A stretch of DNA of 64,000 bases from Nitrospirota bacterium. Its GTDB lineage: Bacteria > Nitrospirota > Thermodesulfovibrionia > Thermodesulfovibrionales > Dissulfurispiraceae. Under the pieces are notes generated by a model. It was given only the letters and a program-made list of their open reading frames with translations, searched no databases and was not told the origin of the DNA. The position numbers and the translations under genes are program-made. The stretch lies in the NCBI GenBank assembly GCA_040754455.1, contig JBFMCP010000015.1, positions 1 to 64,000 of the forward strand, written 5' to 3'. The stretch's first letter is position 1. Each line of letters begins with the position of its first letter. This document shows positions 9,853 through 61,345 of the stretch, piece by piece.

Positions 9853-10475
9853 TCTCCTACCTCTTTCAAATAGTGTACAGCAGCAGCCCGTACATCGGAT
9901 GCACCGAGTATCCCGCTTATGAGCGCAATGCCCTGTGCGCCATGACCGATCACTTCTCCGATCGTCGTTTCCTTTATCCCTCCGATCCCGAACACGGGGA
10001 GGGAGACCTTACCGGCAACCTTCTTCAATTGCTCGACGCCTACGGGCCTGCCGTAGGCCCGCTTGGAAGGAGTATCGTACAGCGGTCCGAAGGTAATGAA
10101 ATCAGCGCCTTCCTGCTCTGCAGCAATTGCCTCTTCCATGGTGTGCGTTGAAACGCCGATTATCGCCATGTCGCCGATGACCTTTCTGACCGCAAATGCA
10201 GGCATGCCCGCCTGCCCGAGATGAACGCCGTCAGCCGCAACAGAAAGGGCGATATCCGCCCTGTCATTGATGATAAGCTTTGCGTTATAGTGTGCCGTCA
10301 TCTCTCTCATTTTATATGCCAGAGAGAGCAATTGCCTCGTCGGCATATCCTTTTCCCTTAGTTGAACGACTTTTACTCCACCTTCAAGCGCATGTTCGAT
10401 TGCGGTGAAAAACATCTCCTGGGTGGAAAATAGTGCTCTATCGGTAATCAGATAAAGCTTGAAATCTATGTTCAT
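9849..10475 (-). CDS. thiE: Thiamine-phosphate synthase
   Basis: QLREKD, INDRAD, GVHLGQ, GVSTH and TPSK. Confidence 0.95.
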   Translation of the reverse strand: MNIDFKLYLITDRALFSTQEMFFTAIEHALEGGVKVVQLREKDMPTRQLLSLAYKMREMTAHYNAKLIINDRADIALSVAADGVHLGQAGMPAFAVRKVIGDMAIIGVSTHTMEEAIAAEQEGADFITFGPLYDTPSKRAYGRPVGVEQLKKVAGKVSLPVFGIGGIKETTIGEVIGHGAQGIALISGILGASDVRAAAVHYLKEVGE

Positions 10476-10543
10476 AGCTGATGGTTCATAGTTTATAGCT
10501 CATAGCAGAATAAATACATCTATGGGCTAGCAGCCGTGAGCTG
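10470..10543. repeat. Inverted heptamer array (thiG-thiE junction)
   Basis: gttcata gctgatg gttcata gtttata gctcata ... tatgggc tagcagc cgtgagc (reverse-complement arm). Confidence 0.8.
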
Positions 10544-10551
10544 AAGATGGT

Positions 10552-11322
10552 CTACAGCATTCCCTCGAAAGGGCTGCTCGCTGTTGCATAAAGCTTCTTG
10601 CCGATCCGCCCTGCCCTGTACGCAAGCCTTCCCGCAAGAACAGCATGCTTCATCGCTTCCGCCATGGCAATAGGGTCTCCGGCACCGGCGATCGCGGTGT
10701 TGATCAGCACCGCATCACAGCCGAGCTCCATAGCGATTGCTGCGTCAGAGGCAGTCCCCACTCCCGCATCGACAATGATCGGCACTTTTGCCGCTTCAAG
10801 GATGATTTTTATGTTGTAGGGATTCCGTATACCCAGCCCCGAGCCGATCGGCGCACCGAGGGGCATCACCGCAGCGGCCCCTGCATCCTCGAGCCGTTTG
10901 GCCATGATGGGATCATCATTGGTGTAAGGAAAGACAATGAACCCCTCTTTTGCGAGCGTCTCCGTTGCTTTGAGAAGCCCGATGGTGTCAGGGAACAGCG
11001 TCCTCTCGTCGCCTATCACCTCGAGCTTGATCATATCGGAGACACCCGCCTCACGCGCAAGACGGGAATAGCGCAGCGCATCCTCGACAGTGTAGCAGCC
11101 AGCGGTATTGGGAAGTATCTTGTATTTTTTCGGATCGAGGTAATCGAGGAGATTCTCCGATTTCCTGTCGATGATGTTCACTCTCCTCACGGCTACCGTC
11201 ACCATATCGGCGCCTGAAGCCTCAATCGCCCGTGCCGTTTCATTAAAGTCCTTATACTTTCCGGTGCCGACCCAGAGTCTGGATCTGAATTCGATCCCCT
11301 TGATGACCAATGTATCTTCCAT
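10552..11322 (-). CDS. thiG: Thiazole synthase
   Basis: [33 protein letters not shown] and VDAGVG. Confidence 0.96.
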
Positions 11323-11337
11323 GTGTTCCTCCCAGCT

Positions 11338-11383
11338 TGTTCACTGCGCACCATTCATCGCAAAAGAGCATAAACAGTGGACG
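11338..11383. repeat. Degenerate inverted heptamer array (thiS-thiG junction)
   Basis: tgttcac tgcgcac cattcat ... ataaaca gtggacg. Confidence 0.5.
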
Positions 11384-11387
11384 TCTA

Positions 11388-11585
11388 TTATCCCCCACCG
11401 ACGAAATTGACAACCTCGACGGCATCACCCTCGTGCAATGCATAGTGAGCGAAATCAGCGCGCTTGATTACCTTGAGGTTCACTTCGACCGCAACCCTCT
11501 CAGGGAGTATGCCGAGCTCGTCAAGGAGCTCTGCTATGGTCGAGCGCCCTGTCTCGTACCTCTCACCATTTACCTTGAGTCTCAT
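11388..11585 (-). CDS. thiS: Sulfur carrier protein ThiS
   Basis: 65 aa ubiquitin-like protein with VAVEVN and C-terminal FVGGG. Confidence 0.95.
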   Translation of the reverse strand: MRLKVNGERYETGRSTIAELLDELGILPERVAVEVNLKVIKRADFAHYALHEGDAVEVVNFVGGG

Positions 11586-11611
11586 TTCCCTTCACCCTCA
11601 GCATCATATTC

Positions 11612-11650
11612 AAAAAAAATCCTCTATCCCTGGAAAGGAATAGAGGATTC
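11612..11650 (-). terminator. Intrinsic terminator (TPP riboswitch expression platform)
   Basis: mRNA reads GAAUCCUCUAUUCC-UUUCC-AGGGAUAGAGGAUUUUUUUU, between the aptamer and thiS. Confidence 0.85.
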
Positions 11651-11667
11651 TGAATTCCTCATCGCTG

Positions 11668-11767
11668 TATTCCCGATTCCTACGCCAGAATTATCTGGAT
11701 CAGGTTCAAGGGGTCTTCCCGTAATAACCGGAAACTCTCAGGCCGGCGGCCTCCCCCAGGGATAGTT
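11668..11767 (-). ncRNA. TPP riboswitch
   Basis: Minus strand GGGGG...CUGAGAG...ACCCCUUGAACCUGAUCCAGAUAAUUCUGGCGUAGGAA matches the THI-box, and it lies upstream of thiS. Confidence 0.95.
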
Positions 11768-20806: not shown

Positions 20807-21993
20807 ATTATCACCAGATCCGCTTTGAGACTTCCTGCTGCCTTGATGGCCTGCAGTATCGCGACCAGGTCGCGGGGAGCAACACCGAGGGCATTGAGCG
20901 CCTTCACCAGCTCACCGATTGTTGCGCCCTTGACTTCGACAAAAGAGGCCTTTTTCTCTTCTGCCGCAACCTCCTTTTTGGGTACAACGATGGTCTCTGC
21001 GCTCTCGGGTGCAAAAGAGGGAGGCTGGGAGACCTGAAACTCGGTCTTGATTTCAATAGTGAGACCTCCATGCGCTAGTGCTACCGAGCTGATACTGACA
21101 TTCTCGCCGACAACAACTGTTCCGGTCCGCTCGTTGACCACCACCCGAGCCGGCAGATCGACATCTACATGAATCGCCTCAACTGCTGCCATGAGCTCCA
21201 CTACTCTGTCGGCATAGGCATCGGGGACGGTTACCGAAATAACCGACGGTCCCTCAGCCTTGGCAAAATTGCCGCTCAATTGCCCGTTTATCCTATCAGC
21301 TACTCTTTTCGCTGTCGTGATATCCTGGGTCATCAGCAGTACGTCGAACCTGTTTCTCAGATTCAACTGCACCGGAACCTCCCGCTCGACAATGGCACCA
21401 TTGGGAACAGTCCCCACATTGGGGTGGTTCTTAATCGTCTGGGCACCTCCCCCACCCGCCGAAAACCCCCCTATCGAGAGCGGCCCCTGGGCAACAGCAT
21501 ACACGCTGCCGTCCGGTCCCTTAAGTGGGGTCATAAGGAGCGTGCCTCCCTGAAGACTCTTTGCATCACCAATGGATGATACCTGCACGTCTACTTTTGA
21601 ACCGGGCTTCACCATTGTGGGAAGCTTGGCCGTTACAATTACTGCGGCGATATTCTTTGTCTTTCCTTTTACATCAGCGGGATTGATGCTAATTCCCATT
21701 CTGGTGAGCATGTTGGCAAAAGGCTGGAATATGTAGGTGCCGTCCTTGTCACCTGTCCCGTTAAGCCCAACCACAATGCCGTAGCCGATAAGCTCATTCT
21801 CCCTGACCCCCGAAAAAGTGGCAATATCCTTTATCCGTTCGGCGTATACATCGGAAGATAAAAGACAGAAGACAGAGGTCAGAAATAGATAAATAGACAA
21901 AAGCGCTCTCGCTTTTCTTTTGCTGCGCGGTTTACATCTGCCTTTGGCCATCTTTGTCCTTGTCCTCCCGGCTCTTATCAACTGTTTCCTCAC
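20803..21993 (-). CDS. flgI: Flagellar P-ring protein
   Basis: RIKDIA..GVR.N.LIGYG.VVGL.GTGD, GDAKSLQGGTL and NERTGTVV. Start uncertain. Confidence 0.95.
   Translation of the reverse strand: MRKQLIRAGRTRTKMAKGRCKPRSKRKARALLSIYLFLTSVFCLLSSDVYAERIKDIATFSGVRENELIGYGIVVGLNGTGDKDGTYIFQPFANMLTRMGISINPADVKGKTKNIAAVIVTAKLPTMVKPGSKVDVQVSSIGDAKSLQGGTLLMTPLKGPDGSVYAVAQGPLSIGGFSAGGGGAQTIKNHPNVGTVPNGAIVEREVPVQLNLRNRFDVLLMTQDITTAKRVADRINGQLSGNFAKAEGPSVISVTVPDAYADRVVELMAAVEAIHVDVDLPARVVVNERTGTVVVGENVSISSVALAHGGLTIEIKTEFQVSQPPSFAPESAETIVVPKKEVAAEEKKASFVEVKGATIGELVKALNALGVAPRDLVAILQAIKAAGSLKADLVIM
21854..21898. repeat. Heptamer array inside the flgI signal peptide
   Basis: gaagata aaagaca gaagaca gaggtca; the minus strand encodes ..FLTSVFCLLS.. 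Confidence 0.65.
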
Positions 21994-22001: not shown

Positions 22002-22772
22002 TCAGAACGGCCAGACCTGATCGAGGAATCTCACCAGCCAGCCCTGGGACTGTTTGTCATCCAGGACGCCATCACCCACAAGGTATATCTGGGCATCGGC
22101 GATATTCTGTGATAAAACGGTATTATTGCTCGATATATCATCGGGCCGTATAATACCCCGCAATACAACGATTTCCTTTTCATTATTCACCACCACCTCT
22201 TTCCTCGATTCGAGCACCAGATTGGCGTTCGGGAGTACTTCGACGACCTTCGCCGTGATCGTCGCCGTCAGTCTCCCTTCCCTCGTCGTATCGCCTTTTC
22301 CCTGGAAATCGGATGATCCGCTCCCCTGGACCCTGGGGGTGAAGGTGTTTGCACCCTTATAGAAATCTTTCAAAGCGAACGCATTATGCAGGTTGAAATC
22401 GAGGTTGGCCCCGAAAAGGTTCGTTATGTTGTAGTCATTGTCTTTTGAGTCACGGCTTGCATTGGTGGTCGCTTTTTTCGAAGCAGCGGACCGTTCGGTA
22501 ATGAGAATGGTCACGAGGTCATTGACCCTCTTCGCCTTTCTGTCCTCATAGAGGGATGCCGCATCTTTCCAGAGCGAACCCTCCGACGAGTATACTGCAC
22601 GCTCCCTTGTCTCGACATAGGCCGGGGGCATCGGTGCGTTTTTTATTTCACGGGCATCCCTGAGACCCTGTGCGCAGCCCCCGATCATCGTCGCCAGAAA
22701 ACACAGAAGTATACCTTTCCTTAGTACGGACTTCCGACTTCTGTATTCCGACTTCTGTATCCTCTTTTTCAT
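22002..22772 (-). CDS. flgH: Flagellar L-ring lipoprotein
   Basis: Lipobox IGGC, GSLW, D.KA..V.D.VTI, VLPNANL, G.IRP.DI...N.V.S and C-terminal WPF. Confidence 0.95.
   Translation of the reverse strand: MKKRIQKSEYRSRKSVLRKGILLCFLATMIGGCAQGLRDAREIKNAPMPPAYVETRERAVYSSEGSLWKDAASLYEDRKAKRVNDLVTILITERSAASKKATTNASRDSKDNDYNITNLFGANLDFNLHNAFALKDFYKGANTFTPRVQGSGSSDFQGKGDTTREGRLTATITAKVVEVLPNANLVLESRKEVVVNNEKEIVVLRGIIRPDDISSNNTVLSQNIADAQIYLVGDGVLDDKQSQGWLVRFLDQVWPF
22729..22763. repeat. Heptamer array inside the flgH N-terminus
   Basis: gacttcc gacttct gtattcc gacttct gtatcct encodes RIQKSEYRSRKS. A partial complementary arm lies at about 22695-22712 (ILLCFL). Confidence 0.75.
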
Positions 22773-23503
22773 ATTTTCACCTTTACCATCGTAGGGGCAA
22801 CGAGAATGCCGTATATCTCCTTTTTAGAACTGTCGCACCACACTTTCGCAGTGCCTCCGAGTACCGCATCGTTACGTAATACTCCCTTGGTTGAAATACT
22901 TACGTTGTTTCCCTCAACCACAACATCAACTTTTTGTCCTCTCTTGCCCGATGCCGGTGCATTTACGTGGTTGGTCTTCAAGATGATGCCCTGTCCCAGC
23001 GAAGCCCGCAATGCTTTTCCCTCGAGCTCATCCTTATTAAGAAGCGCACCTGCAGGGATCCGTGAGCTTTTCTGCTTCACGGTATAAAAATCGTTCTCCG
23101 TCAGTATCGTTCCGCTCATGAGCGGCCTGGAAGTAACGAAGACATCAACCGGTACATCATATGCAGTTTCGATGAGCAATGAAGAATCTTTCTCTTCATT
23201 GGAGACGGTTATTAAAAAGACCGCCTTATTCCTTCCATTGTACCCGTTCATTACCGCGCTCTTTATTACCGAGGGACCTTTGCGATGAATGATCTCTCCC
23301 CCCCTTATAATCCTCAATCCGGTAAGTTCCACCTCATCCGAGATGAGGTGGGATAACTTTTCGTGTAGTATCGTCTCTATCTCACCAAGCAGAGCACTCT
23401 TCTCGTCTGCACGGGAAACAGAGGCAAGCAAAAAGAGCATGACAGGAAAGATCATGCCAAGTATCCAGCCCTGCCCTCTCCTGGTTTCCTTGTAAAGTGT
23501 CAT
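22769..23503 (-). CDS. flgA: P-ring assembly chaperone FlgA
   Basis: Position between flgG and flgH, signal peptide, SAF-like region and C-terminal G..V.V...G..L.D...G...V....S.K. Confidence 0.85.
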   Translation of the reverse strand: MTLYKETRRGQGWILGMIFPVMLFLLASVSRADEKSALLGEIETILHEKLSHLISDEVELTGLRIIRGGEIIHRKGPSVIKSAVMNGYNGRNKAVFLITVSNEEKDSSLLIETAYDVPVDVFVTSRPLMSGTILTENDFYTVKQKSSRIPAGALLNKDELEGKALRASLGQGIILKTNHVNAPASGKRGQKVDVVVEGNNVSISTKGVLRNDAVLGGTAKVWCDSSKKEIYGILVAPTMVKVKI

Positions 23504-25120: not shown

Positions 25121-25128
25121 CAAAAAGA

Positions 25129-25256
25129 AAATCCTACATACAAATATCGAAATCCTAAACAAATGAAAAATTCACGAGCGATCGAGCGCTATTACAGCAT
25201 CGCCTGAATGAAAAATATGCCGTTGTTTAGAAATTGTGACTTAGGACTTAGGATTT
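25129..25256. repeat. Inverted heptamer array upstream of the flgF promoter
   Basis: aaatcct acataca aatatcg aaatcct aaacaa ... ttgtttag aaattgt gacttag gacttag gattt. Confidence 0.75.
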
Positions 25257-25297
25257 GATGTGAAAGATGGTGGGAAAATTTTTCCCGACAGGGAAAA

Positions 25298-26446: not shown

Positions 26447-27514
26447 CTATACCGAATTGACGATTTCTCCGGCAATCTCTTCCAGGTATAATACCTTGTC
26501 GGCGAGACCCGCATCGACAACCGCTTTCGGCATGCCGTAGACGACGCAGGTCTCCTCATTCTGGGCGAAGATTCTGCCGCCGCTCTTTTTCAAGGCCGTC
26601 AGTCCCTTCAGGCCGTCGTTGCCCATACCCGTCAGAATAACGCCCAATGCCCTGCCCGGGAAAAACTCGGCAACAGAGCTCATAAGCGCATCAACCGAGG
26701 GGCGATAGATAAAGTCTTCCTTATTCTCGGAAATGCTGACGACGGTCTCGATACCCTTCACCCTCGTTACTCTCATATGGCCGCGCCCTGGGGCTACCAA
26801 CGCAAGACCCGGCCTCAGCATTTCGCCCTCCACCGCTTCTTTCACATCAATCTGACTGAGCTGATTGAGCCGTTCCGCAAAGGGGCCCGTGAAATTCGGC
26901 GGCATATGCTGTGCAATAACGATGGGGACCGGAAAATTCTTCGGCAATTTGGGGATGATCTCCTGGAGCGCCTTGGGCCCTCCTGTGGAAGTGCCGATGG
27001 ACACCACCCCGACCCTCCGTTCGCCGGTAGTCCTGACCGGTATCGCGCGAGGCATTTCGAGGGGGGGTGGTGCAGCAAGCGGCCGTGGAACGGGCCGAGC
27101 CTTCCTCTTCACGATCCCTTTCCTTCCGATATGCTTTATCTTTTCGATCAGTATCTCCTTAATTTTCACGATATTCACCGAGAGTTCCGAAAGGTTTTTC
27201 GGGATGAAATCGACCGCCCCGTGATCCAGAGCATCGAGCGTAGCCTTTGCTCCCTCGGTGGTGATGGAACTCACCATAATGACGGGAAGCGGGTTGGTCT
27301 CCATGATATGCTTGAGGGCGGTGATACCGTCCATTCGAGGCATCTCCACATCCATGGTAACCACATCGGGCTTGAGACTTTCTATTTTTTCGATGGCTTC
27401 CAGCCCGTCACGAGCCGTACCGATGATCTTGATCTCCGGGTCCGAGGCGAGCATATTGGAGAGCGCATTCCTCATGAATGCAGAATCATCGACAATGAGT
27501 ATCTTAACCGTCAT
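26447..27514 (-). CDS. cheB: Chemotaxis methylesterase CheB (receiver plus methylesterase)
   Basis: IVDDSAFMR, GTSTGGP, QHMP, RPSVD and LTGMG.DG. Start MTVKIL at 27514. Confidence 0.96.
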   Translation of the reverse strand: MTVKILIVDDSAFMRNALSNMLASDPEIKIIGTARDGLEAIEKIESLKPDVVTMDVEMPRMDGITALKHIMETNPLPVIMVSSITTEGAKATLDALDHGAVDFIPKNLSELSVNIVKIKEILIEKIKHIGRKGIVKRKARPVPRPLAAPPPLEMPRAIPVRTTGERRVGVVSIGTSTGGPKALQEIIPKLPKNFPVPIVIAQHMPPNFTGPFAERLNQLSQIDVKEAVEGEMLRPGLALVAPGRGHMRVTRVKGIETVVSISENKEDFIYRPSVDALMSSVAEFFPGRALGVILTGMGNDGLKGLTALKKSGGRIFAQNEETCVVYGMPKAVVDAGLADKVLYLEEIAGEIVNSV

Positions 27515-27516
27515 TT

Positions 27517-27574
27517 GTTCACCGTTCATCGTTCATCGTTCACCGTCTTTCGCTATGAACGGTGAACAATGAGC
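27517..27574. repeat. Inverted heptamer array (MCP-cheB junction)
   Basis: gttcacc gttcatc gttcatc gttcacc ... tatgaac ggtgaac aatgagc. Confidence 0.9.
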
Positions 27575-27578
27575 TTTT

Positions 27579-32252: not shown

Positions 32253-32282
32253 GCCTCCTCCTCGTTAAAAGTTACCTAATGA

Positions 32283-32393
32283 CCATCAGTCATCAGCTAT
32301 CAGTAGTCAGCAAAAAAATGGAAAAGATACTCTGTTATTGCATTCTGCTTTACGCTTTTTATTTACTGACGGCTGAGGGCTGCTAGCTGATGT
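32283..32393. repeat. Inverted heptamer array (cheA to cheW-cheZ junction)
   Basis: ccatcag tcatcag ctatcag tagtcag ... ctgacgg ctgaggg ctgctag ctgatgt. Confidence 0.9.
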
Positions 32394-32408
32394 CAGTCTT
32401 CTCATTTC

Positions 32409-44428: not shown

Positions 44429-44443
44429 ATTAACTTCGTCTCA

Positions 44444-44529
44444 GCGTCAGGCGTCGCGCGTCGGCAGCCGACTTAAAAATGAATGCTGCGCCTTTTGACG
44501 CTCGAATCTCGACGATTTGTGCATGACGC
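44444..44529. repeat. Inverted heptamer array (fliQ-fliR junction)
   Basis: gcgtcag gcgtcgc gcgtcgg ... ttgacgc tcgaatc tcgacga tttgtgc atgacgc. Confidence 0.8.
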
Positions 44530-44534
44530 ACGTT

Positions 44535-44804: not shown

Positions 44805-45868
44805 CTGAACCCTCCCACGAGTGAGCCGATCAGCAGCTCCCACCCGTCGACGAGCACAAAGAGCAGCAGCTTGAACGGCATGGAAACCATTACCGGCGGA
44901 AGCATCATCATCCCCATCGAAAGTAAAACACTCGCCACAACCATATCGATAACGAGAAAGGGAAGAAAAATAAGAAAGCCGATCTCAAAGGCCTTTTTGA
45001 GCTCGCCGATCGCAAAGGCAGGGATCACCACCCTCATCGGCAGATCCATCGGTGTAGCAGGCCGCTCAGACTTCGACATCTTCAGGAAAAGTGCGAGATC
45101 CTTCTCCTTCGTCTGCTTCAGCATGAACTCTTTCAGGGGGACCCCTGCCCTGTTCAGGGCATCCTCTGCATTGATCTCCTTTTTGGTGTACGGCACATAG
45201 GCATCAGCATATATCTTATCGATAACCGGCGACATGATAAAGAAGGTAATGAACAGCGAAAGCCCGATCACCACCTGTGTCGGCGGCACCTGCGGCGTAC
45301 CGAGCGCCTGACGCAGAAAGGAAAGGACAATCACAATACGGGTAAAGGAAGTCACCATCACGAGAAGGGATGGCAGGATCGAGAGCAGTGTAAGGAAGAG
45401 GAGCACCTCCATGGGAGTGCTCAAACCGAAAAGCCCGCCTCCGGGTGCTGCAGGCGGCGCAGGCGCTGCCTGCGCAACAACAGGAGCCAGGAGCCAGAAC
45501 CCGGTAGCCAGAATAATACCGATAAGCCCGAAAAATCCCTTTTTGATATAATCTTTTATTCTCATTCCTGGTCTCACCCCTGGCTCCTGCCCCCTGGTTT
45601 CCGACTCCTGTTTTAACGCCTCATAAACGTCAGAGGCATTGAGCTTGCTCAGGAGCGATATGTTTTCATCAGCAACACCGACGACCAGGAACTCTTTTAA
45701 CACCTTTACAATCGCGATCCCCTTTTTCGGCCCGAAGGGCTGGTAATGAAAAATCTCAATCATCCCTTTCTGGGGCATTACCTTCTGCTTGAGAAACCGC
45801 AGGACAAGGTAGAGCCCGCCGAGGACAATCAATAAGGCAACCGCAACTTTCATCAACTCAAAACCCAA
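44801..45868 (-). CDS. fliP: FliO-FliP fusion protein
   Basis: The N-terminal ~80 aa is FliO-like (TM, G.KK.I..VKV....LVVGV....ISLL). The C-terminus is FliP (TSFTRI.IVL, PP.QV..GL, ELKKAF.IGF, MMMLPP, PFKLLLF...DGW). One uninterrupted frame. Confidence 0.88.
   Translation of the reverse strand: MGFELMKVAVALLIVLGGLYLVLRFLKQKVMPQKGMIEIFHYQPFGPKKGIAIVKVLKEFLVVGVADENISLLSKLNASDVYEALKQESETRGQEPGVRPGMRIKDYIKKGFFGLIGIILATGFWLLAPVVAQAAPAPPAAPGGGLFGLSTPMEVLLFLTLLSILPSLLVMVTSFTRIVIVLSFLRQALGTPQVPPTQVVIGLSLFITFFIMSPVIDKIYADAYVPYTKKEINAEDALNRAGVPLKEFMLKQTKEKDLALFLKMSKSERPATPMDLPMRVVIPAFAIGELKKAFEIGFLIFLPFLVIDMVVASVLLSMGMMMLPPVMVSMPFKLLLFVLVDGWELLIGSLVGGFR
45481..45609. repeat. Inverted heptamer array inside the FliO-FliP linker
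   Basis: caggagc caggagc cagaacc cggtagc cagaat ... attcctg ... gctcctg cccctg gtttccg actcctg. Confidence 0.8.
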
Positions 45869-47707: not shown

Positions 47708-47718
47708 ATAAAAACCTC

Positions 47719-47822
47719 CGTATAGCGTTATAGCGTAATGCGTTATAGCGTGAGATCCTTATGGAACAAAATAAGAAGAGAACCTCGTACACAATAACGA
47801 CCAACGCTATAACGCTCTACGC
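47719..47822. repeat. Inverted 7/8-mer array in the fliL leader
   Basis: cgtatag cgttatag cgtaatg cgttatag cgt ... ataacg accaacg ctataacg ctctacg. Confidence 0.8.
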
Positions 47823-47826
47823 ATTT

Positions 47827-47842
47827 AGCACAGATTGTGCCA
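47827..47842 (-). promoter_or_regulatory. sigma54 promoter upstream of fliL
   Basis: TGGCACAATCTGTGCT. Confidence 0.8.
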
Positions 47843-53028: not shown

Positions 53029-53062
53029 GTATTCCTCCGGACGACATTGGTACGGTGCTTTA

Positions 53063-53078
53063 AGCAATAGGCATGCCA
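53063..53078 (-). promoter_or_regulatory. sigma54 promoter upstream of fliK
   Basis: TGGCATGCCTATTGCT. Confidence 0.85.
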
Positions 53079-53086
53079 AACAACAG

Positions 53087-53229
53087 CAGTAGTCAGAAGC
53101 CAGGAATCAGTAGCCAGGAGAAGAAGAAAATACAAAATAAGGTGCTTTCTTGCAGTGGTACGTACAAATTGTGGCGATCCGCTTTCTTATTTTGCCTTTT
53201 GGCTACTGCATTCTGACTACTTGCTACTA
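53087..53229. repeat. Inverted heptamer array (motE-like gene to fliK junction)
   Basis: cagtagt cagaagc caggaat cagtagc caggaga ... ccttttg gctactg cattctg actactt gctacta. Confidence 0.9.
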
Positions 53230-53251
53230 GTTTTGGTGGGGAAGATTTTTC

Positions 53252-53737
53252 CTAGGGGGAAGTTTTTGCCCGGGGAATGGTTCCTTTTGAAAGGATCCTC
53301 TTTGAGAGCGTGGCCGCCTTTTCGTTCTCCATCTGCGCAAGGATCTTGCCCGCGGTCTTCGGCTTTAATGAGCCCAGTATGGTAACGGCGGTCTCGTCAT
53401 CGAGCCTTTCGAGCTTGCGCGCAGCCTCATCAGAGGGCATCGCCTCGTACATCTTTGCGAGTTTCTGCAGCTTCTCTTCATTCTTGACATCCAGCGCTTT
53501 CTGCGCCTCGTCGATCTCCTTCTTCAATTTCCTGTATTTCTCCATCTCGCGCTGAATGTCCGCCTTGAGGATGTTCAGTCGCTCTTCTTCAATGGATCGT
53601 AATGACTGCTGTTTCGCTGCAGGGGATGGTTGTTTTTGTTGCTGGGCGGAATTTGCCGAAGAAGAAGCAAAGAGCAAAAAGTAAAAGGTAAAGATAAGGA
53701 AAGATCCTTTTTTGACCTTTGAAGTGCAATTTTTCAT
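53252..53737 (-). CDS. MotE/FlbB-like protein (MgtE N-terminal-like domain)
   Basis: Signal-like N-terminus, coiled coil, LAKMYEAMP..EAA..L and KPKTAGKILAQM...KAA.L; position after fliJ. Confidence 0.8.
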   Translation of the reverse strand: MKNCTSKVKKGSFLIFTFYFLLFASSSANSAQQQKQPSPAAKQQSLRSIEEERLNILKADIQREMEKYRKLKKEIDEAQKALDVKNEEKLQKLAKMYEAMPSDEAARKLERLDDETAVTILGSLKPKTAGKILAQMENEKAATLSKRILSKGTIPRAKTSP

Positions 53738-53757
53738 TTTTCTCTTTGCTTTTTGAT
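53665..53757. repeat. Inverted heptamer array spanning the start and signal peptide of the motE-like gene
   Basis: aagcaaa gagcaaa aagtaaa aggtaaa ... ttttcat ttttctc tttgctt tttgatc. Confidence 0.75.
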
Positions 53758-53759
53758 CT

Positions 53760-54194
53760 CTAGGCTCTGTGCCTGTTATGTCCGTTGACGGCGTGCTCAT
53801 CCGTTCCGATCTGCTCCTTTCGCCTGAGCTCTTTCTCCACGAGGTGTTTTTGCTTTTCATCAAGCCGCTCAAATATCTTTTTGTCTTTTGAGGCATCGGC
53901 AAGGTGTCTTCGTGCTGCCTCGACTTCACGCTCTTTATCTGCAAGGATGCTCTTCTGCCTCTGTATGGTGCTCAGCAGGTGCTCAAGATGCTCATTGAGC
54001 CGCTTTATTTCATCGATATTGATCAGTTCATCAGCACCACCAAAACGAGTGCTGAGCGATTGGTACTGCTCTTCCAGCTTATGCAATTTCGCCTCTTCCG
54101 TCGCAAGCTCTCTCAGGAGGAGCGCAAACCTGTTCTTTGCTTCATCCTCTTTCCACCGCTTCAGGTTCAAAAGGCTCTCAACAGGGCTTCTCAC
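53760..54194 (-). CDS. fliJ: Flagellar export protein FliJ
   Basis: 144 aa coiled coil after fliI, with LL.LK...E..A, A..D.K..E.L and EQ...DE. Confidence 0.88.
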   Translation of the reverse strand: MRSPVESLLNLKRWKEDEAKNRFALLLRELATEEAKLHKLEEQYQSLSTRFGGADELINIDEIKRLNEHLEHLLSTIQRQKSILADKEREVEAARRHLADASKDKKIFERLDEKQKHLVEKELRRKEQIGTDEHAVNGHNRHRA

Positions 54195-55546: not shown

Positions 55547-56225
55547 CCTGGACTTCCTTCAGTTGCTCTTCGATCCGGGCATCTATCTCGCCGGTCTCGG
55601 TCTCGATATAGCACCCTCCCGGAAAGATGGTTGCCAGCGGCTCTATGGAGATATCTTTAATGCCTGACTGTCCCTTGAGCATATCAAGGTGCGAGATCAT
55701 GATCTCGTAATCGAGCGGATTCACCTTGATGACCACATGCTCTTCCCTTTCGCCGACCCTCTTCATCGCATCACGGGCGACGCCGAGGATGAGCTCCCTG
55801 TCAAGCTCTACTTCCTTGTGGATGACCTTCTTTGCGATATCCAGAGCGAGCTCGATGAGCTGCGGCATCAGCTCTTCGGCTCTTTTCTCTCTGAAATGCT
55901 CGAGGGCCGTGATGATTTCTCCAAGCCGCTGCATCCGTTCGGCGATCTCCTGCAGCCCCTGCTGCAATCCCTTCTCGTACCCTGCGGTGTACCCTTTCTC
56001 ATAGCCCGCGTGCTCCTGCTCCTTTATGCGCGCCTGCAGCTCTGCTTCGCGCACCCGCTGCAGCTCCTCCGGCGACATCTCCTGCTGCGGCGGGACGACC
56101 TCCGGTTCCCGCACAGGCGTGTCTCCTGCAAGGTCCTCATCGAACCGGACCATGGTATAGGGCTGGATGATATCGTGCTTGGTACTAAATAATGACTTCC
56201 TCTCCACCTTTCCCTCCGATAACAA
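55512..56225 (-). CDS. fliH: Flagellar assembly protein FliH
   Basis: GxxxG repeats (GYEKGYTAGYEKG), VNP.D and GGC.IET..G.IDA. Confidence 0.92.
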   Translation of the reverse strand: MLSEGKVERKSLFSTKHDIIQPYTMVRFDEDLAGDTPVREPEVVPPQQEMSPEELQRVREAELQARIKEQEHAGYEKGYTAGYEKGLQQGLQEIAERMQRLGEIITALEHFREKRAEELMPQLIELALDIAKKVIHKEVELDRELILGVARDAMKRVGEREEHVVIKVNPLDYEIMISHLDMLKGQSGIKDISIEPLATIFPGGCYIETETGEIDARIEEQLKEVQDVIDTATHREV

Positions 56226-57165
56226 TCTTGCCCTCTTCCTCGAGTCTCCGCGCCACTCTCACAATATTCATCTGCGCCTTTTCGACATCGGAGACCTTCA
56301 CCGCACCTTTCGATTCCATCTCTTCCTTCAGTATCTGCACCGCCCTCTGCGACATATTCTTGTAGATCTTCGCCTTGAGCTCGTCGCCCGCCATTTTGAG
56401 TGCAAGCGCAAGATCGTCAGTCGTAATCTCCTTGAGCACCATCTGAATGCCGCGGTCGTCGATATTGACCAGGTCGTCGAAGGTGAACATGAGCTTCCGT
56501 ATCTCGTCGGCGAGGATCTGGTCTTTCTCTTCGATGTTCTTGAGGATGAGGTCCTCGGTCGCGCGGTCGAGCTGGTTGAGGATCTCCGCCACGGTCCTGA
56601 TACCGCCGATCTTCCTGCCCCTCGTATAGCTCTGGAGCTGCGACTGGAGCACGTCTTCGAGTTCACCCAATATTGACGGTGATATCTGATCGAGGCTTGC
56701 AATCCTCAATGAAACATCTATTTTTATATGTTCGGGAAGCTTTGCAAGCACTTCAGCAGCCTGTGAGGGTTCAAGATAGGCGACGATAATGGCAATCGTC
56801 TGGGGGTGCTCACGGGCGAGCATGTTGGCGATCGCGCCAGAATCGAGCCATCTCAGGATGTCGAAGGCGCTCGCACCGCTCTCGATCTTGTCCATCAACT
56901 TCTTTGCGTGCTCTTCGCCAAAGGCCTTCACCAGTATCTTTTTGATATAATCCTCGTCAACGGAGAGCATTGCGGAGCCCACCTTGTCGGAGAAATCGTT
57001 CAGGAGCGCTTCCGCCATTTCCGGAGAGAGCTTGACCCGCGCCATCATGGGGACGACCCTCGCCAGCTCCAGAGGATCGAGGTGCTTGAATACCTGTGTT
57101 GCGGCTTCCTCGCCGACTACGGAAAGGAACGCCGCCACTTTTTCGACACCGGTGAGCTTTTTCAT
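56185..57165 (-). CDS. fliG: C-ring/rotor protein FliG
   Basis: EHPQTIA, MFTFDDL and NMSQRA. Confidence 0.96.
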   Translation of the reverse strand: MKKLTGVEKVAAFLSVVGEEAATQVFKHLDPLELARVVPMMARVKLSPEMAEALLNDFSDKVGSAMLSVDEDYIKKILVKAFGEEHAKKLMDKIESGASAFDILRWLDSGAIANMLAREHPQTIAIIVAYLEPSQAAEVLAKLPEHIKIDVSLRIASLDQISPSILGELEDVLQSQLQSYTRGRKIGGIRTVAEILNQLDRATEDLILKNIEEKDQILADEIRKLMFTFDDLVNIDDRGIQMVLKEITTDDLALALKMAGDELKAKIYKNMSQRAVQILKEEMESKGAVKVSDVEKAQMNIVRVARRLEEEGKIVIGGKGGEEVII

Positions 57166-57169
57166 AGGC

Positions 57170-58690
57170 CTATTCCGACAACCACTCCTTTACGATCATG
57201 GCAGCCTTGCGCGGGTCTTTCTTGACCACCTCGACGATCCGCTCCCGCATAATCTCCTGCTGCGTCGTTTCTGGTTCGGTAAGCGCAGGCACTGCCGGCA
57301 CTGCCTCACCGGCAGGCAGCTGCGGCGGTCCAGCAGGGGCTTTCAGCATCTCGAGCAGCGGCTTCACCACAAAGAGAATGAGCACCGCGATGACCGCGAT
57401 GGGCACAAGGTATTTGAGCAATGTAATCACGATTTTCAGATAGTCGGGCTTGCCCGCGGGGAGTTCCTCAGCGGCCGCTTCAAACGGCATGTTCTGGACG
57501 ATCACCTGATCCCCCCGTTCCCGGCTGAAGCCTACCGAGGCCTTGACGATTTCCTCGTATTTCTTTATCTCCTCTTCGCTCCTCGGCTGGTAGACCGTCT
57601 TGTTCTTTTCCTTCCTGTAGGTGCCGTCGACGAGGACAGCGACCGATATGCTCTTGATCTCGCCGCGCGGCAGGGATATCTTGCTCACGCTCCTGCTCAC
57701 TTCATAATTGATATTTTCCGACTGCTTCTGTGATGACGAGGGTGCTCCGGACGAGGCGGCGGGCTGTTGTCCCGGCTGGTTTGAGAGCACGCCGGGGATG
57801 CCGCCGTTGACCGCACCGGTAGACTTCTCCTGGTTTCGCTGCTCCGTCTTTACCACGACCGAGTCCGGATCGAATTTCTCCTCCGTCTTTTCCACCTGCG
57901 AAAAATCTATCTTCGTCGCAACCCTGACGATCGCCTTTCCCTTGCCGACGATGCCCTCGAGCATGCTCTGCAGCCTGCCCTCGTACTCTTTGTCGACCGC
58001 CTTCTGGTAACTCAGCTGTCGCGCATCGGCGATCATGTCACCGTCCATCGGCTTCGAAAGCAAATTTCCCATGTTGTCGATCACCGTGACGTTCTGGGGA
58101 GACATTCCTTCGACACTGCTCGCGACGAGATGCACAATACCGCCGATCTGTCCCTGGCTGAGCACCCTTCCCGGCTTCAACTTCAGCACCACCGAAGCGG
58201 TCGGCCGCTCTTCCTTTTCAGAAAAGAGCGTGCGTTCGGGGATAGCGATATGGACACGGGATTGCTCCACCTCGGAGAGCTGTCTGATGGTCCTTGTCAG
58301 CTCGCCCTGGAGCGCCCTGATATAATTCAAGCGTTGTACGAATTCGGTGACACCGATCTGCGTCTTATCGAATATCTCGAACCCGACGCCGCCGCCCTGG
58401 GGAATCCCCTGCGCAGCGAGATCGAGCCTGAGCTCATAGACCCTGGCACTCGGGACATAGATGACATTTCCCTCGACCTTATAGGGAACTTTCATCTCCC
58501 GCAATTTAGTAATCACCTGCCCGGCATCTTCCTGGGAGAGGTTGCTGTAGAGGACCTGGTAGTCGACCCTCTGGCTCCAGAGCATGATGCCGGTCATCAC
58601 CGCAATACTCAGGGCGATGAGCGAGGCAAGGGCTATCTTCTTTTTAAGAGGCCAGGCCTTTATCTGGTCAATCACTTCGCTGATGGTCAT
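57170..58690 (-). CDS. fliF: MS-ring protein FliF
   Basis: GFEIFD, RALQGEL.RTI, ASVVL, LVASSV.G, G.PG..SN, NYEV and RGD. Confidence 0.96.
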   Translation of the reverse strand: MTISEVIDQIKAWPLKKKIALASLIALSIAVMTGIMLWSQRVDYQVLYSNLSQEDAGQVITKLREMKVPYKVEGNVIYVPSARVYELRLDLAAQGIPQGGGVGFEIFDKTQIGVTEFVQRLNYIRALQGELTRTIRQLSEVEQSRVHIAIPERTLFSEKEERPTASVVLKLKPGRVLSQGQIGGIVHLVASSVEGMSPQNVTVIDNMGNLLSKPMDGDMIADARQLSYQKAVDKEYEGRLQSMLEGIVGKGKAIVRVATKIDFSQVEKTEEKFDPDSVVVKTEQRNQEKSTGAVNGGIPGVLSNQPGQQPAASSGAPSSSQKQSENINYEVSRSVSKISLPRGEIKSISVAVLVDGTYRKEKNKTVYQPRSEEEIKKYEEIVKASVGFSRERGDQVIVQNMPFEAAAEELPAGKPDYLKIVITLLKYLVPIAVIAVLILFVVKPLLEMLKAPAGPPQLPAGEAVPAVPALTEPETTQQEIMRERIVEVVKKDPRKAAMIVKEWLSE

Positions 58691-58706
58691 TCTTTCCTCA
58701 AAAAAA

Positions 58707-58800
58707 CGTTATAGCATCATGCGTCGTGCGTTATGCGTCGAGCGCAAAAACAACTGTTGTATCTTCTGACGCTCGGCGCTTGACGCGTGCCTCATGATGC
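58707..58800. repeat. Inverted heptamer array (fliE-fliF junction)
   Basis: gcatcat gcgtcgt gcgttat gcgtcga ... ctgacgc tcggcgc ttgacgc gtgcctc atgatgc. Confidence 0.88.
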
Positions 58801-58801
58801 T

Positions 58802-59095
58802 TTATACCTGCATTCTCATAATCTCCTCGTAGGCGGTGAGGAGCTTGTTTCTTACCTGGAGCAGCGTCTGCATGGAGATATCCGCCTTCTCCATGGCGAC
58901 GACAACGGTATGGATGTCCTTGACCTCGCCCTTGGCAAAATCCTCTATCGCCTTTTCCGCATCGTTCTGCACTGCAGAGACTTCGCGCATCGCATCGTTG
59001 ATCGCCGCCTCAAAAGAGGCGGAGCTCTTTTGCGTGTTCATCGACGGCTCAGGAAGTCCCTGCCCGATATCGCCGATATTTTTTATCTCGCTCAT
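58802..59095 (-). CDS. fliE: Hook-basal body protein FliE
   Basis: DIH.V..A.EKA......QVRNK...AY.EIMRMQV. Confidence 0.95.
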   Translation of the reverse strand: MSEIKNIGDIGQGLPEPSMNTQKSSASFEAAINDAMREVSAVQNDAEKAIEDFAKGEVKDIHTVVVAMEKADISMQTLLQVRNKLLTAYEEIMRMQV

Positions 59096-59113
59096 GGATT
59101 CCCCTCCTTAAAA

Positions 59114-59156
59114 GCGTTATAGCGTCGCCTGGCTCTTGATGCTTGACTCTCGACGC
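59114..59156. repeat. Short inverted heptamer array (flgC-fliE junction)
   Basis: gcgttata gcgtcgc ... ttgatgc ttgactc tcgacgc; same unit family as 44444 and 58707. Confidence 0.65.
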
Positions 59157-59157
59157 T

Positions 59158-59565
59158 TTACACTTTGGTAATGTCCAATGTTTTTATAAACATCTCTTTG
59201 TACGTGTTGATCATCGTCAGGTTCGCCTCATAGGCGCGGGCGGCAGCCGTGAGGTTTACCATCTCCTCGATGGTGTTGATGTTCGGATAGCTGACATACC
59301 CGTCAGCGTTGGCGTCGGGATGCCCCGGATCGTACACTGTTTTGAACGGCCTCTGGTCCTCGACAATCCTGGGGATATCGACGCCGGTCGAAGTCTCGTC
59401 ATAGAGATACGACGCAAAGACGACGTCCTTCCTCCGGTACGGCCCTCCCGCGGGGGTGCTGGTGGAGTTAATATTCGCGATATTCGAAGCGATAACGTTC
59501 ATCCGCATCTTCTGCGCTTCGAGGGCGGTTGCGCTTACCTTCAGCGGCATAAAGAGCTCTCTCAT
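59158..59565 (-). CDS. flgC: Rod protein FlgC
   Basis: ASNIAN..ST, GPYRRK, YDP.HPDA..DGYV..PN.N and R.YEAN. Confidence 0.96.
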   Translation of the reverse strand: MRELFMPLKVSATALEAQKMRMNVIASNIANINSTSTPAGGPYRRKDVVFASYLYDETSTGVDIPRIVEDQRPFKTVYDPGHPDANADGYVSYPNINTIEEMVNLTAAARAYEANLTMINTYKEMFIKTLDITKV

Positions 59566-59906
59566 TATCTGCCTCCCTTGATCACATCTTTGAGCATTCT
59601 GATTTTCATACTCATCAACTGCGTCGCCGTCGTGTAGGTCAGGGAATTTTCAGCCACCTTCGCCATCTCGATGTCGAGATTGACGGTATTGCCGTCCCTG
59701 TTCGGCATGGTCGTCACGGTCTCGTAGACTTCGTAGCCTGACGGCGCAGCGCCGCTCAATACCCTGTCCAGCTCTTTCTGGAAGGAAATATCCTTCGCCT
59801 TATACCCCGGGGTATCGGCATTGGCGATGTTGGAAGCAAGAACTTTTTGCCTAGCAGCGGCAATATCGAGCATACGCTCGAGGATTTTCATTGTAGAATC
59901 AGGCAT
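59565..59906 (-). CDS. flgB: Rod protein FlgB
   Basis: RQKVLASNIANADTPGYKAKD and DGNTVN.D.EM. Confidence 0.96.
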   Translation of the reverse strand: MPDSTMKILERMLDIAAARQKVLASNIANADTPGYKAKDISFQKELDRVLSGAAPSGYEVYETVTTMPNRDGNTVNLDIEMAKVAENSLTYTTATQLMSMKIRMLKDVIKGGR

Positions 59907-59941
59907 AAGCTCCTCCTGAATATGGTTTTATATAATATATA

Positions 59942-59957
59942 TGCAAATTCTGTTCCT
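59942..59957 (-). promoter_or_regulatory. sigma54 promoter upstream of flgB
   Basis: AGGAACAGAATTTGCA (GG-N10-GC spacing). Confidence 0.7.
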
Positions 59958-59977
59958 GTCCTGGCGCCTTTCACGTC

Positions 59978-61264
59978 CTACTGGCCGTCGTCGGCTATAT
60001 TATACTCTTTTATCTTGTTTCGTATAGTCCGTACACTGACGCCGAGCAGCTCGGCTGCACGGGTCCTGTTGTTGTTCGTTTTTTTCAGGGTCTCGATGAT
60101 CAGCTCTTTCTCCATATCGCGAATCGTTCCGGTCCTTGACGATCCCGCTGCAGCCTTCGCGGCAGCGGGACCTTCGGTAGGTGGCAGCAGGAGCTCTGAC
60201 CTGGATATGACCGCTATCCGGTAGATGAAATTCTCGAGCTCACGGACATTCCCCTCCCATTCCCTGCCCAGAAGGTAGTCCCTCAATTCAGCCGAGAGCT
60301 GGAAGGCCTTGCTCATCTTCCTCGACAGCCTTCGCACAAAGAATTCAGCCAGGGGGACAATGTCCTCCCTCCGCTCTCTGAGCGAGGGGAGCTTGAGGGG
60401 GAAGACATTCAGACGGTAGTAGAGGTCTTCCCTGAACTTTCCCTCCTTCACCTGGGAAAAGAGGTCCCTGTTCGTCGTTGCAATGATCCTCACATCCACC
60501 GGGATGGGAGCGCGGCCGCCGATACGGTCGATCTCCCGTTCCTGTATCGCCCTGAGGAGCTTTGCCTGCAGTGGATACGCCATCTCGCTGATCTCATCGA
60601 GGAGGATCGTCCCTTTATTGGCAAGCTCGAATTTTCCCATCCTCCGGTCAACAGCGCCGGTAAAGGCGCCCTTCTCATGCCCGAAGAGCTCGGATTCGAG
60701 GAGGTGTTCGGATATGGCGGCGCAATTAATCGCAATGAACGGTTTGTCCGCCCTGAGGCTGTGATGGTGGATAAACCGGGCGATCACTTCCTTGCCGGTG
60801 CCGCTCTCGCCCGAGAGGAGGACTGTGATATCGCTTCTGGCGATCTCCCTCGCCACGGACATGAGGTGCGCCATCACCGGAGATTCCGCAACGATATCCT
60901 CTTCCCCGGCAGGCAGGAGGCGGTCGATCACCCGCTGCAGGGCATCGAAGGAAAATGGTTTCATAATGTAGTCAGTAGCCCCGAGCTTCATGGCGTCGAC
61001 TGCGTTCTCGACGGTCCCGTAACCGGTAATCACGATGACCGGCACGAAGATGCCCCGCTTGCGCACCTCCTGGAGGAACTCGATGCCATTCATCTTCGGC
61101 ATTTTCATGTCGGTGATGATGAGCGCAAAGTCGGCAATATTGAGCTCTGCAAGCGCATCAGCCGGGTTGTGAAATACCGTGGGCTCAAACCCGCAGCGTT
61201 TGAGCGACTCCTTCAGCGCCAGCGCCATATCGACTTCGTCATCAATAACCAGAACCGATTTCAT
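59978..61264 (-). CDS. sigma54-dependent response regulator (FleR/FlrC-like)
   Basis: Receiver domain, GESGTGKE, ELFGHEKGAFTGA, FREDLYYRL and C-terminal Fis-type HTH. Confidence 0.93.
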   Translation of the reverse strand: MKSVLVIDDEVDMALALKESLKRCGFEPTVFHNPADALAELNIADFALIITDMKMPKMNGIEFLQEVRKRGIFVPVIVITGYGTVENAVDAMKLGATDYIMKPFSFDALQRVIDRLLPAGEEDIVAESPVMAHLMSVAREIARSDITVLLSGESGTGKEVIARFIHHHSLRADKPFIAINCAAISEHLLESELFGHEKGAFTGAVDRRMGKFELANKGTILLDEISEMAYPLQAKLLRAIQEREIDRIGGRAPIPVDVRIIATTNRDLFSQVKEGKFREDLYYRLNVFPLKLPSLRERREDIVPLAEFFVRRLSRKMSKAFQLSAELRDYLLGREWEGNVRELENFIYRIAVISRSELLLPPTEGPAAAKAAAGSSRTGTIRDMEKELIIETLKKTNNNRTRAAELLGVSVRTIRNKIKEYNIADDGQ

Positions 61265-61273
61265 AATCTTTTA

Positions 61274-61345
61274 AGAATCCAGAAGCCAGAATAACAGCAC
61301 ATTAAATCTATTATTCTGACTTGTGACTTGTGACTTCTGACTTCT
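61274..61345. repeat. Inverted heptamer array overlapping the kinase 3' end
   Basis: agaatcc agaagcc agaataa ... ttattct gacttgt gacttgt gacttct gacttct; encodes the tail QKSEVTSHKSE*. Confidence 0.85.

Follow-up and report, generated by a model that had tools for sequence, protein, structure and literature searches.

Heptamer-armed hairpins at the gene junctions of a Nitrospirota genome and their probable kinship with PF05635 cassettes

The window considered here, the 64,000 nucleotides (nt) of C15:1-64000 (GenBank JBFMCP010000015.1), belongs to a 3.27-Mb assembly in 92 contigs of a Nitrospirota bacterium (GCA_040754455.1), for which a search with FliI returned closest loci of 75-82% identity in metagenome-assembled genomes (MAGs) labelled Nitrospirae or Dissulfurispiraceae. 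Nearly all window genes lie on the minus strand; among them are cas genes, pyrD, greA, a thiC/thiE/thiG cluster that carries a thiamine pyrophosphate (TPP) riboswitch, and, from ~14.9 kb on, a large flagellar and chemotaxis cluster. The TPP riboswitch (11659-11767) was the sole match to Rfam over the whole window at gathering scores. Between and at the ends of these genes, an earlier reading of the window (the original prediction) had listed 15 loci as one family of hairpins, in which degenerate tandem units of ~7 nt (heptamers) face their reverse complements across a spacer. Our analysis confirmed the heptamer hairpin as a real, abundant, and specific feature of the genome, and there was good evidence that these hairpins belong with the cassette encoding the intervening sequence (IVS) protein family PF05635. 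Gene boundaries were taken from our own crude gene calls (3202 genes, 88% coding), which contain some errors, for example, at fliH.

Arrays of at least four copies and at least 75% identity were counted across the genome and in three order-3 Markov simulations. At period 7, the genome held 222 arrays compared with 4, 4, and 2 in the simulations; the corresponding numbers were 79 (12, 6, and 15 simulated) at period 6 and 22 (2, 0, and 0) at period 8. Within the 1996 intergenic regions, 147 period-7 arrays were present compared with 1, 0, 0, 0, and 1 in dinucleotide shuffles, and the same regions contained 8, 10, 2, and 0 arrays of periods 5, 6, 8, and 9, respectively. Inverted pairing was assessed for arrays of at least three copies and at least 78%, a partner being scored where at least 15/21 positions matched in reverse complement no more than 200 nt away. 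Such a partner accompanied 201 of 457 arrays, and the control orientations gave 27 (direct), 10 (reversed), and 49 (complement). A strict scan of the genome yielded 142 hairpin loci and 237 unpaired arrays, with array sizes of 3, 4, 5, 6, and 7 units in 97, 78, 33, 11, and 1 cases; the median hairpin had 27 paired positions in its stem, a spacer of 28 nt, and a folding energy of -25 kcal/mol. Thus, the shared architecture and the 7-nt period that had been proposed for the window were borne out on the genome scale.

The hairpins occupied a narrow range of positions relative to genes. Among the 142 loci, 107 were wholly intergenic, 23 partly intergenic, and 12 within coding sequence; the flanking genes were co-directional at 112, convergent at 16, and divergent at 12, and two loci lay at contig ends. 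The available gaps of at least 40 nt numbered 1256 (co-directional), 255 (convergent), and 323 (divergent), so the predicted bias to co-directional junctions was present, and divergent gaps were under-used because 323 of them held only 12 loci. The 112 co-directional loci had a median length of 81 nt and an A+T content of 65%; their 5' arm began a median of 7 nt past the upstream stop codon (quartiles -0.25 to 17) and their 3' arm lay a median of 18.5 nt from the next start codon (quartiles 7.5 to 41), a slot that runs from just past the stop codon to just ahead of the next ribosome-binding site. The original prediction had also stated that U-tracts were lacking, and TTTT was found within 12 nt past the 3' arm at only 14 of the 112 loci; therefore, most hairpins are not intrinsic terminators, which have a GC-rich stem with a U-tract behind it. 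The expectation of strand-biased G-U pairing fared less well. G-U pairs made up 315/3188 pairs on the sense strand and 270/3125 on the antisense strand, and the sense strand was the more stable in 68 loci and the antisense strand in 44 (Wilcoxon p = 0.07); because the strand difference reached only this level and the G-U counts were close, the evidence for a constraint acting on the RNA alone was weak.

In sequence, the hairpins formed a few families and many single copies. BLAST clustering of the 142 hairpins at a cutoff of at least 44 bits gave clusters of 29, 10, 9, 3, 2, 2, 2, and 2 members, and a looser cutoff of at least 36 bits gave 33 clusters. Family F1 is built of CAGRAnn units; F2 (10 members) of AAATYCT units with a conserved inner stem; F3 (9 members) of CAAARnn units with a conserved GGA..TCC loop; and F4 of GTTCAnn units with unrelated loops, and a further type has TCAGC units. 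Altogether, 189 canonical unit consensus types were distinguished, the main cores being CAGRA, TCAGC, GTTCA, AAATYCT, CAAAR, and GCGT. The statement that the loci share an architecture and differ in sequence therefore held for the many units and the 83 singletons, but not for the families, some of which have conserved loops or inner stems. Polarity was one-sided in every one of six unit types (29:0, 4:0, 4:0, 2:0, 3:0, and 1:0; total 43:0). A universal rule of a purine-rich 5' arm was dropped, since the excess by locus (107 vs. 30) was not significant by cluster (19 vs. 14); arm polarity is thus a family trait. The two arms of a hairpin have their core in common, but the order of the unit variants differs between them. 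The in-register identity of the arms was 0.750 compared with 0.751 after unit shuffling (35 testable loci), and templating of one arm from the other was rejected. Each arm grows and shrinks independently in steps of 7 or 14 nt, as the non-mirrored unit order, the period-14 duplicates, and a 7-nt indel between strains (described below) together indicated that arms change independently and in place.

The presence/absence polymorphism foreseen by the original prediction was observed at orthologous junctions of relatives and of a close strain. Synteny with the window was complete in the relatives L001-L004. The flgC/fliE junction is filled in the window (62 nt), empty in L001 (20 nt) and L004 (14 nt), and has a small GC hairpin in L003 (30 nt); fliE/fliF is filled in the window (111 nt), L001 (107 nt), and L004 (101 nt) and empty in L003 (6 nt); and fliQ/fliR is filled in the window (106 nt), carries a hairpin of a different unit in L001 (113 nt), is empty in L003 (6 nt), and falls outside the locus in L004. 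Junctions that are empty in the window were also found filled elsewhere: fliL/fliM (11 nt) is filled in L001 (195 nt) and L004 (114 nt) and measures 40 nt in L003; fliN/fliO (17 nt) is filled in L001 (112 nt), measures 449 nt in L003, and has a single array in L004 (41 nt); fliI/fliJ, where the genes overlap in the window and in L001 (empty in both), is empty in L003 (2 nt) and filled in L004 (132 nt); and tpr/flrB, an overlap (empty) in the window, is empty in L001 (2 nt), measures 39 nt in L003, and is filled in L004 (101 nt). The fliE/fliF and fliL-leader hairpins have a GCGTTAT-type unit in common with L001 and look orthologous, and an F2-type hairpin was found at orf53252/fliK in L001 but upstream of flgF in the window genome. 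For the strain comparison, contigs from four other runs were aligned to window positions 44000-63000. One of them, X5, is a single 35.8-kb contig with 2.4-4.9% differing letters in three long aligned pieces (92/1,872, 255/7,184, and 234/9,761). At fliN/fliO, X5 has 123 nt compared with 21 nt in the window, that is, ~102 nt extra, and the hairpin at 53079-53240 could not be aligned in X5 (150 nt vs. 160 nt in the window). Exactly 7 nt are missing at 61317 in both X5 and X6, the one locus with a whole-unit change of copy number between strains. These results showed that hairpins were gained, lost, and swapped at orthologous junctions.

We then considered the relation of the hairpins to PF05635, a family with invariant residues at Q34, R37, S41, I46-A47-E48-G49, and E71 in 16 sequences, and with XCC0516 of Xanthomonas (2gsc, five chains, E = 1e-18) as its nearest solved structure. 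The genome has two PF05635 matches, both on contig C2. The gene at C2:182238-182555 is preceded by four xxTCAGC units and followed by four GCTGAxx units. A truncated counterpart was found at the fliL/fliM junction of L001, where an open reading frame (ORF) of 50 amino acids (aa) lies between CGTAATG-type and CATTACG-type arms and matches PF05635 positions 1-41 of 106 (59 bits, E = 6e-16); L001 thus has a truncated cassette where the window has an empty junction. By eye, at least 11 of 13 PF05635 loci (12 from other Nitrospirota and the one described here) had inverted heptamer arms, each with its own unit. An automated survey of 53 Nitrospirota PF05635 loci, in which the choice of start codon misses some arms, found arrays (at least 10/14) on both flanks of 30 and on at least one flank of 40, with units matching as reverse complements in 28, and matching arms were present at 27 of 43 distinct PF05635 loci on viral contigs of IMG/VR. 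The guess that the hairpins are scars or empty sites of a small mobile cassette thus fits both the arm-bracketed gene of this genome and the truncated ORF of L001. No PF05635 ORF lies inside a hairpin among the window loci, and an IVS in the organism's own 23S rRNA was sought in an assembly that contains no large-subunit rRNA.

Several side observations concern PF05635 genes and their surroundings. The other PF05635 match of the genome (C2:111597-111899, plus strand) lies within 111337-112159, with a near-identical stretch of ~100 nt on either side; PF05635 and Avd are homologous (PMC10053308), and this gene looks like the Avd of a diversity-generating retroelement (DGR), its flanks resembling the template and variable repeats. 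In L090 (G146:C125), the 5' arm and the first bases of the PF05635 gene region occur in three tandem copies of a ~53-nt unit, and in L083 and L088, a complete empty hairpin stands directly upstream of a PF05635 cassette; the surroundings of the cassettes are themselves unstable. In L071, a Thermodesulfobacteriota MAG, outer TCAGC-type arms enclose inner CCGTTnn-type arms at 5942-6017 and again at 11339-11410, the same nested combination at two junctions, and 10 period-7 arrays occur in 21 kb; the nesting suggests that one hairpin was inserted into another hairpin's loop.

We also compared the distribution of arrays and PF05635 genes among 201 Nitrospirota genomes, counting only CAG-type units (five CAG cores spaced 7 nt). 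The CAG-type pattern was present in 81 genomes and PF05635 in 100, and the pattern was patchy by family (e.g., 35/44, 10/13, 0/28, and 0/12). PF05635 was found in 42 of the 43 genomes with at least 10 array hits compared with 58 of the 158 others (Fisher p = 2e-14), and array load correlated with PF05635 (Spearman 0.70), both statistics ignoring relatedness. Moreover, particular protein N-termini went with particular arm units: RDFKEL with TCAGY, GFRxL with AGGGTC, THKDLDVW with CGTAATG, and the KHNFRNL type with a CAGAA-type unit, the core of F1. Arm unit and protein distance were correlated (Mantel r = 0.40, p = 0.0005), and the mean unit similarity was 5.6/7 at 60-78% protein identity (32 pairs) compared with 3.6/7 below 45%. 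By these comparisons, the arm unit tracks the PF05635 protein clade.

The 15 listed loci are given in table 1. For each, the mRNA-sense (minus-strand) RNA was folded and compared with 200 dinucleotide shuffles. Eight loci folded far beyond the shuffles (z at most -2.8) and four moderately, but three did not, one of which, at 11338, was dropped. Tandem Repeats Finder (TRF) detected arrays at 12 of the loci, 11 of them with period 7 or 14 and one with period 8; our own scan added the array at fliQ/fliR, and at 11338 and 59114 neither method found an array. The loci do sit between or at the ends of genes as described, but those at 21854, 22729, 45481, and 53665 are partly coding.

Table 1. The 15 listed loci of the window, with positions of repeats and signals and z-scores of folding (the TRF column gives the start of the detected array; period 7 or 14 unless specified)
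Locus	Location	Extent (strand)	TRF	Structure and context	z
10470	thiG/thiE junction	10465..10560 (-)	10470 (periods 14 and 7)	array 10470-10506, units GTTCATA/GCTGATG; inverted partner weak; thiE ATG inside final unit	-0.95
11338	upstream of thiG	11338..11362 (-)		two loose GTTCA-like units, no partner; not a member	-0.8
21854	flgI start	21850..21980 (-)	21854 (period 7)	array 21854-21901 is the hydrophobic core of the FlgI signal peptide; partner is a purine-rich stretch containing the flgI ribosome-binding site and ATG	-1.3
22729	flgH start	22690..22775 (-)	22729	period-14 duplicate 22732-22760 (TRF 100%), a purine-rich arm encoding the charged N-region; its partner encodes the hydrophobic region; lipoprotein signal	-3.5
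25129	F2 element	25125..25262 (-)	25238	AAATYCT units, conserved inner stem, loop ~75 nt; directly upstream of sigma-54-type promoter 25105-25120 of flgF operon (0 mismatches)	-1.5
27517	mcp/cheB junction	27512..27575 (-)	27517	GTTCAnn x4 against nnTGAAC x2, family F4; cheB ATG after 3' arm	-4.5
32283	cheA/cheW-cheZ junction	32278..32395 (-)	32285	nnnTCAG arrays in both arms, then ribosome-binding site and ATG	-2.8
44444	fliQ/fliR junction	44436..44530 (-)		GCGTCnn array 44443-44464 (own scan), loose partner	-0.4
45481	fliO/fliP boundary in one open frame	45476..45625 (-)	45481	5' arm 45570-45625 encodes FliO tail; loop holds FliP ATG; 3' arm 45479-45520 encodes FliP signal-peptide core	-3.0
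47719	fliL 5' leader	47712..47835 (-)	47721 (period 8)	GCGTTAT-type arms, ribosome-binding site after 3' arm; downstream of sigma-54-like site 47827-47842 (1 mismatch)	-4.6
53087	between orf53252 and fliK sigma-54 promoter (53063-53078)	53085..53232 (-)	53093	period-14 CAG-type arms, loop ~100 nt	-3.5
53665	fliJ/orf53252	53660..53760 (-)	53665	F3-like, CAAARnn units, GGA..TCC loop; T-rich arm 53665-53705 encodes signal-peptide core of orf53252 (start ATG 53737)	-2.1
58707	fliE/fliF junction	58700..58800 (-)	58717	GCGTnnn units	-4.2
59114	flgC/fliE junction	59105..59165 (-)		short GCGT-type hairpin	-1.7
61274	flrB/flrC junction	61268..61350 (-)	61314	5' arm 61312-61348 CAGAAGT-type, encoding the final ~13 residues of FlrB kinase; 3' arm 61271-61291	-4.1

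Some features of the window lie beside these loci. The fliO and fliP genes form one open frame (44801-45868, minus strand) of 355 codons with no intervening stop, and because the FliP start and signal peptide lie inside the hairpin of the shared frame, translation of FliP probably begins at an internal ATG (45565). Of the sigma-54-type -24/-12 motifs on the minus strand, those ahead of flgF and fliK are perfect and abut hairpins 25129 and 53087 on the downstream side, and that of fliL has one mismatch and lies directly upstream of hairpin 47719; L001 and L004 both retain the fliK and fliL motifs. A general role of the hairpins as enhancer or promoter modules for sigma-54 was rejected, as such a site lay within 40 nt at only 1 of the 142 strict loci, with ~2.8 expected. 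Farther away, the CRISPR-associated genes at 102-1833 (minus strand) comprise a member of the Cas_NE0113 family and Cas6. Two neighbouring flgE-like hook genes at 47988-49640 and 49708-51081 (minus strand) encode 550 and 457 aa, and the spacer between them has several small indels in strain X5, none a multiple of 7.

Several known repeat classes resemble the hairpins in part. As with repetitive extragenic palindromes (REP), bacterial interspersed mosaic elements (BIME), and miniature inverted-repeat transposable elements (MITE), the hairpins are short, dispersed, intergenic, and grouped in families, and the members of F2 and of F3 have an inner stem or loop in common; on the other side, one consensus for all loci and terminal inverted repeats beyond the arrays are lacking, 83 of the 142 loci are singletons, and the arms are internally periodic at 7 nt. 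Tandem heptamers in intergenic DNA also characterize the cyanobacterial short tandemly repeated repetitive (STRR) sequences. A closer likeness was found to the ORF-bearing IVSs of 23S rRNA in Coxiella burnetii and Leptospira (PMC4990558), which form a long stem from terminal inverted repeats. In the Coxiella IVS, RNase III cuts in the stem, and tandem heptamers of strain-variable copy number stand ahead of the S23p start (PMC4990558). The likeness extends to a PF05635 protein inside the stem, as at C2:182238, in the Nitrospirota loci, and on viral contigs, and to a closed stem in a transcribed, tolerant position; unlike the 23S IVSs, which occupy helix 9, 25, or 45, the window loci are found in the spacers and 5' leaders of mRNAs and at the ends of coding sequences, and none contains the ORF.

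The GGGAATC repeats of Xanthomonas (Rehm 2015, PMC4692102) and the MTYCTGA repeats of Geobacter metallireducens (PMC2700814) likewise consist of two close arrays on opposite strands, of ~4-5 heptamers, and both lie mostly between co-oriented ORFs, are rare at divergent ones, stay close to the upstream stop codon, and differ in length from one relative to the next. The Geobacter sites have the CTGA/TCAG core in common with this genome (PMC2700814). In contrast, those repeats are described with one or few units compared with the 189 unit types found here, and most units here are not G-rich, unlike those of Xanthomonas, and do not form quadruplexes (PMC4692102). The TAACTGA repeats of Beggiatoaceae, Cyanobacteria, and Bacteroidetes (MacGregor 2015, PMC4679880) are also intergenic tandem heptamers, often just upstream of start codons and patchy across phyla, but those sets are mostly direct (169 direct and 1 indirect in that genome), whereas inverted pairing is the rule here. 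The excerpted text of PMC4692102 contains no occurrence of S23, XCC0516, or "intervening," and that of PMC2700814 likewise makes no link between arrays and PF05635. In the literature searched, no paper linked PF05635 genes to intergenic heptamer hairpins, the nearest being the account of heptamers in the Coxiella IVS (PMC4990558).

In conjunction with the arm-bracketed cassettes and the turnover at junctions, we consider it probable that the loci are genome-wide heptamer-armed stem-loops that represent gene-less or gene-lost relatives of a PF05635 (IVP/S23p, Avd-like four-helix-bundle) hairpin cassette. Such hairpins would spread as selfish, near-neutral insertions, and the closed stem would hold the flanking stop and start signals adjacent, as an IVS does within an rRNA helix. 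The ~27-bp stems would probably be substrates of RNase III, which could cut the operon transcript at the junction; this prediction follows from the IVS analogy (PMC4990558), from the length of the stems, and from the occurrence in the genome of rnc, which encodes RNase III (C5:34276-34935, minus strand). An F3-type heptamer hairpin stands ~50 nt downstream of rnc, at C5:34163-34227. Some arms may have been recruited as coding sequence, for signal-peptide cores and C-terminal tails.

Several points weigh against this explanation. The genome has a single PF05635 cassette (plus the DGR Avd) for 142 hairpins, the PF05635 clades that match most hairpin families are absent from it, and 83 of the 142 hairpins have no BLAST relative in the genome at 44 bits or more. 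The association across genomes is uncorrected for shared ancestry and concerns CAG-type units only; within it, G135 has 90 array hits and no PF05635, and six genomes with at least three PF05635 hits have no CAG arrays. No transposase, target-site duplication, or mobility mechanism was found, in an analysis that included no search aimed at REP-associated tyrosine transposase (RAYT) or other transposase partners, and inspection by eye of the empty/filled junction pairs gave no target-site duplication. The arms are not mirror copies of each other and grow in place, so that much of the structure of the arrays could be due to slippage alone.

Within the cassette explanation, we tentatively suggest a further possibility, namely that a PF05635 protein and its heptamer arms are a matched pair, in which each protein clade would read its own 4-5-nt core every 7 nt and thereby maintain and spread the hairpins as rRNA IVSs, as spacer and phage cassettes, and as solo stems that have lost their gene. 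STRR, GGGAATC, TAACTGA, and MTYCTGA repeats, along with those of this genome, might then be footprints of one widespread selfish cassette family. The suggestion is based on the conservation of the core at 60-78% protein identity and on the tracking of PF05635 by array load.

Among other explanations, it seems rather unlikely that the hairpins arose by mutation in place, with slippage favouring 7-nt units (Mrazek 2007, as cited in PMC4679880), selection or template switching keeping the inverted partner, and PF05635 genes landing or surviving at the resulting sites. Such a process agrees with the 7-nt indel between strains, the period-14 higher-order repeats, the arms not mirrored unit by unit, and the number of singleton hairpins, and in many bacteria, no long simple repeat is commoner than the heptamer (PMC4679880). 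However, both polarities would be expected from it in place of the 43:0 observed; the non-repeat inner stems or loops of F2 and F3 are common to 9-10 loci, with F2 at another junction in L001; whole hairpins of ~100 nt appear or vanish between the window and a ~97%-identical strain; and cassettes with proteins of only 60-78% identity still have the same 4-5-nt core.

It is improbable, in our view, that the arrays are primarily binding sites, with a short core read every 7 nt by a host global regulator, an IHF/HU-type protein, or a PF05635 pentamer and with the hairpin as a secondary consequence. For the class-3 MTYCTGA "global regulator sites" of G. metallireducens, binding by a global regulator or an IHF/HU-type protein was proposed by Aklujkar 2009 (PMC2700814), and paired opposite-strand sites of five MTYCTGA heptamers, one pair between proB and proA, are described there. 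A unit made of a conserved 4-5-nt core and 2-3 free positions, arms that have the core but not the unit order in common, arrays mostly of 3-5 units, and the Mantel correlation of unit with PF05635 clade are all in line with such sites. Yet a genome with many cores and a single PF05635 gene would leave most of them without a reader, and individual junctions gain and lose such sites.

A host-built operon punctuation code, in which the hairpins would set mRNA stability, processing, or translation and thereby subunit stoichiometry in the thi and flagellar operons, as the original prediction had also entertained, is very improbable: the intercistronic position just ahead of ribosome-binding sites, the under-use of divergent gaps, the slightly better folding of the sense strand (68:44), and the transcription of most Xanthomonas heptamer repeats (PMC4692102) speak for it, but relatives and the ~97%-identical strain, despite conserved flagellar proteins, may have a hairpin, no hairpin, or one of another family at a given junction, the G-U bias is not significant (p = 0.07), hairpins occur all over the genome beyond multi-subunit operons, and insertions that are simply tolerated should show the orientation bias just as well.

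Taken together, the results make this genome a rich example, within Nitrospirota, of a known class of repeats that lacks an explanation. To our knowledge, the heptamer repeats of cyanobacteria, Xanthomonas, Geobacter, and Beggiatoa have been on record for decades without an explanation, and we know of no function for the IVS protein family, although its structure has been solved. The cassette explanation for the heptamer hairpins would bring the two together, since the genome ties heptamer repeats to IVS proteins through stems with and without the gene and a decaying copy at an operon junction, and further through co-occurrence across the phylum and a repeat unit that follows the protein clade. 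Should the stems be sites of RNase III, the elements would cut many operon transcripts, including those for flagellar, chemotaxis, and thiamine genes. The elements may also supply new coding sequence to genes, here the cores of signal peptides, and for genome annotation, they would account for odd start-codon calls and for "extra" N- and C-terminal tails.

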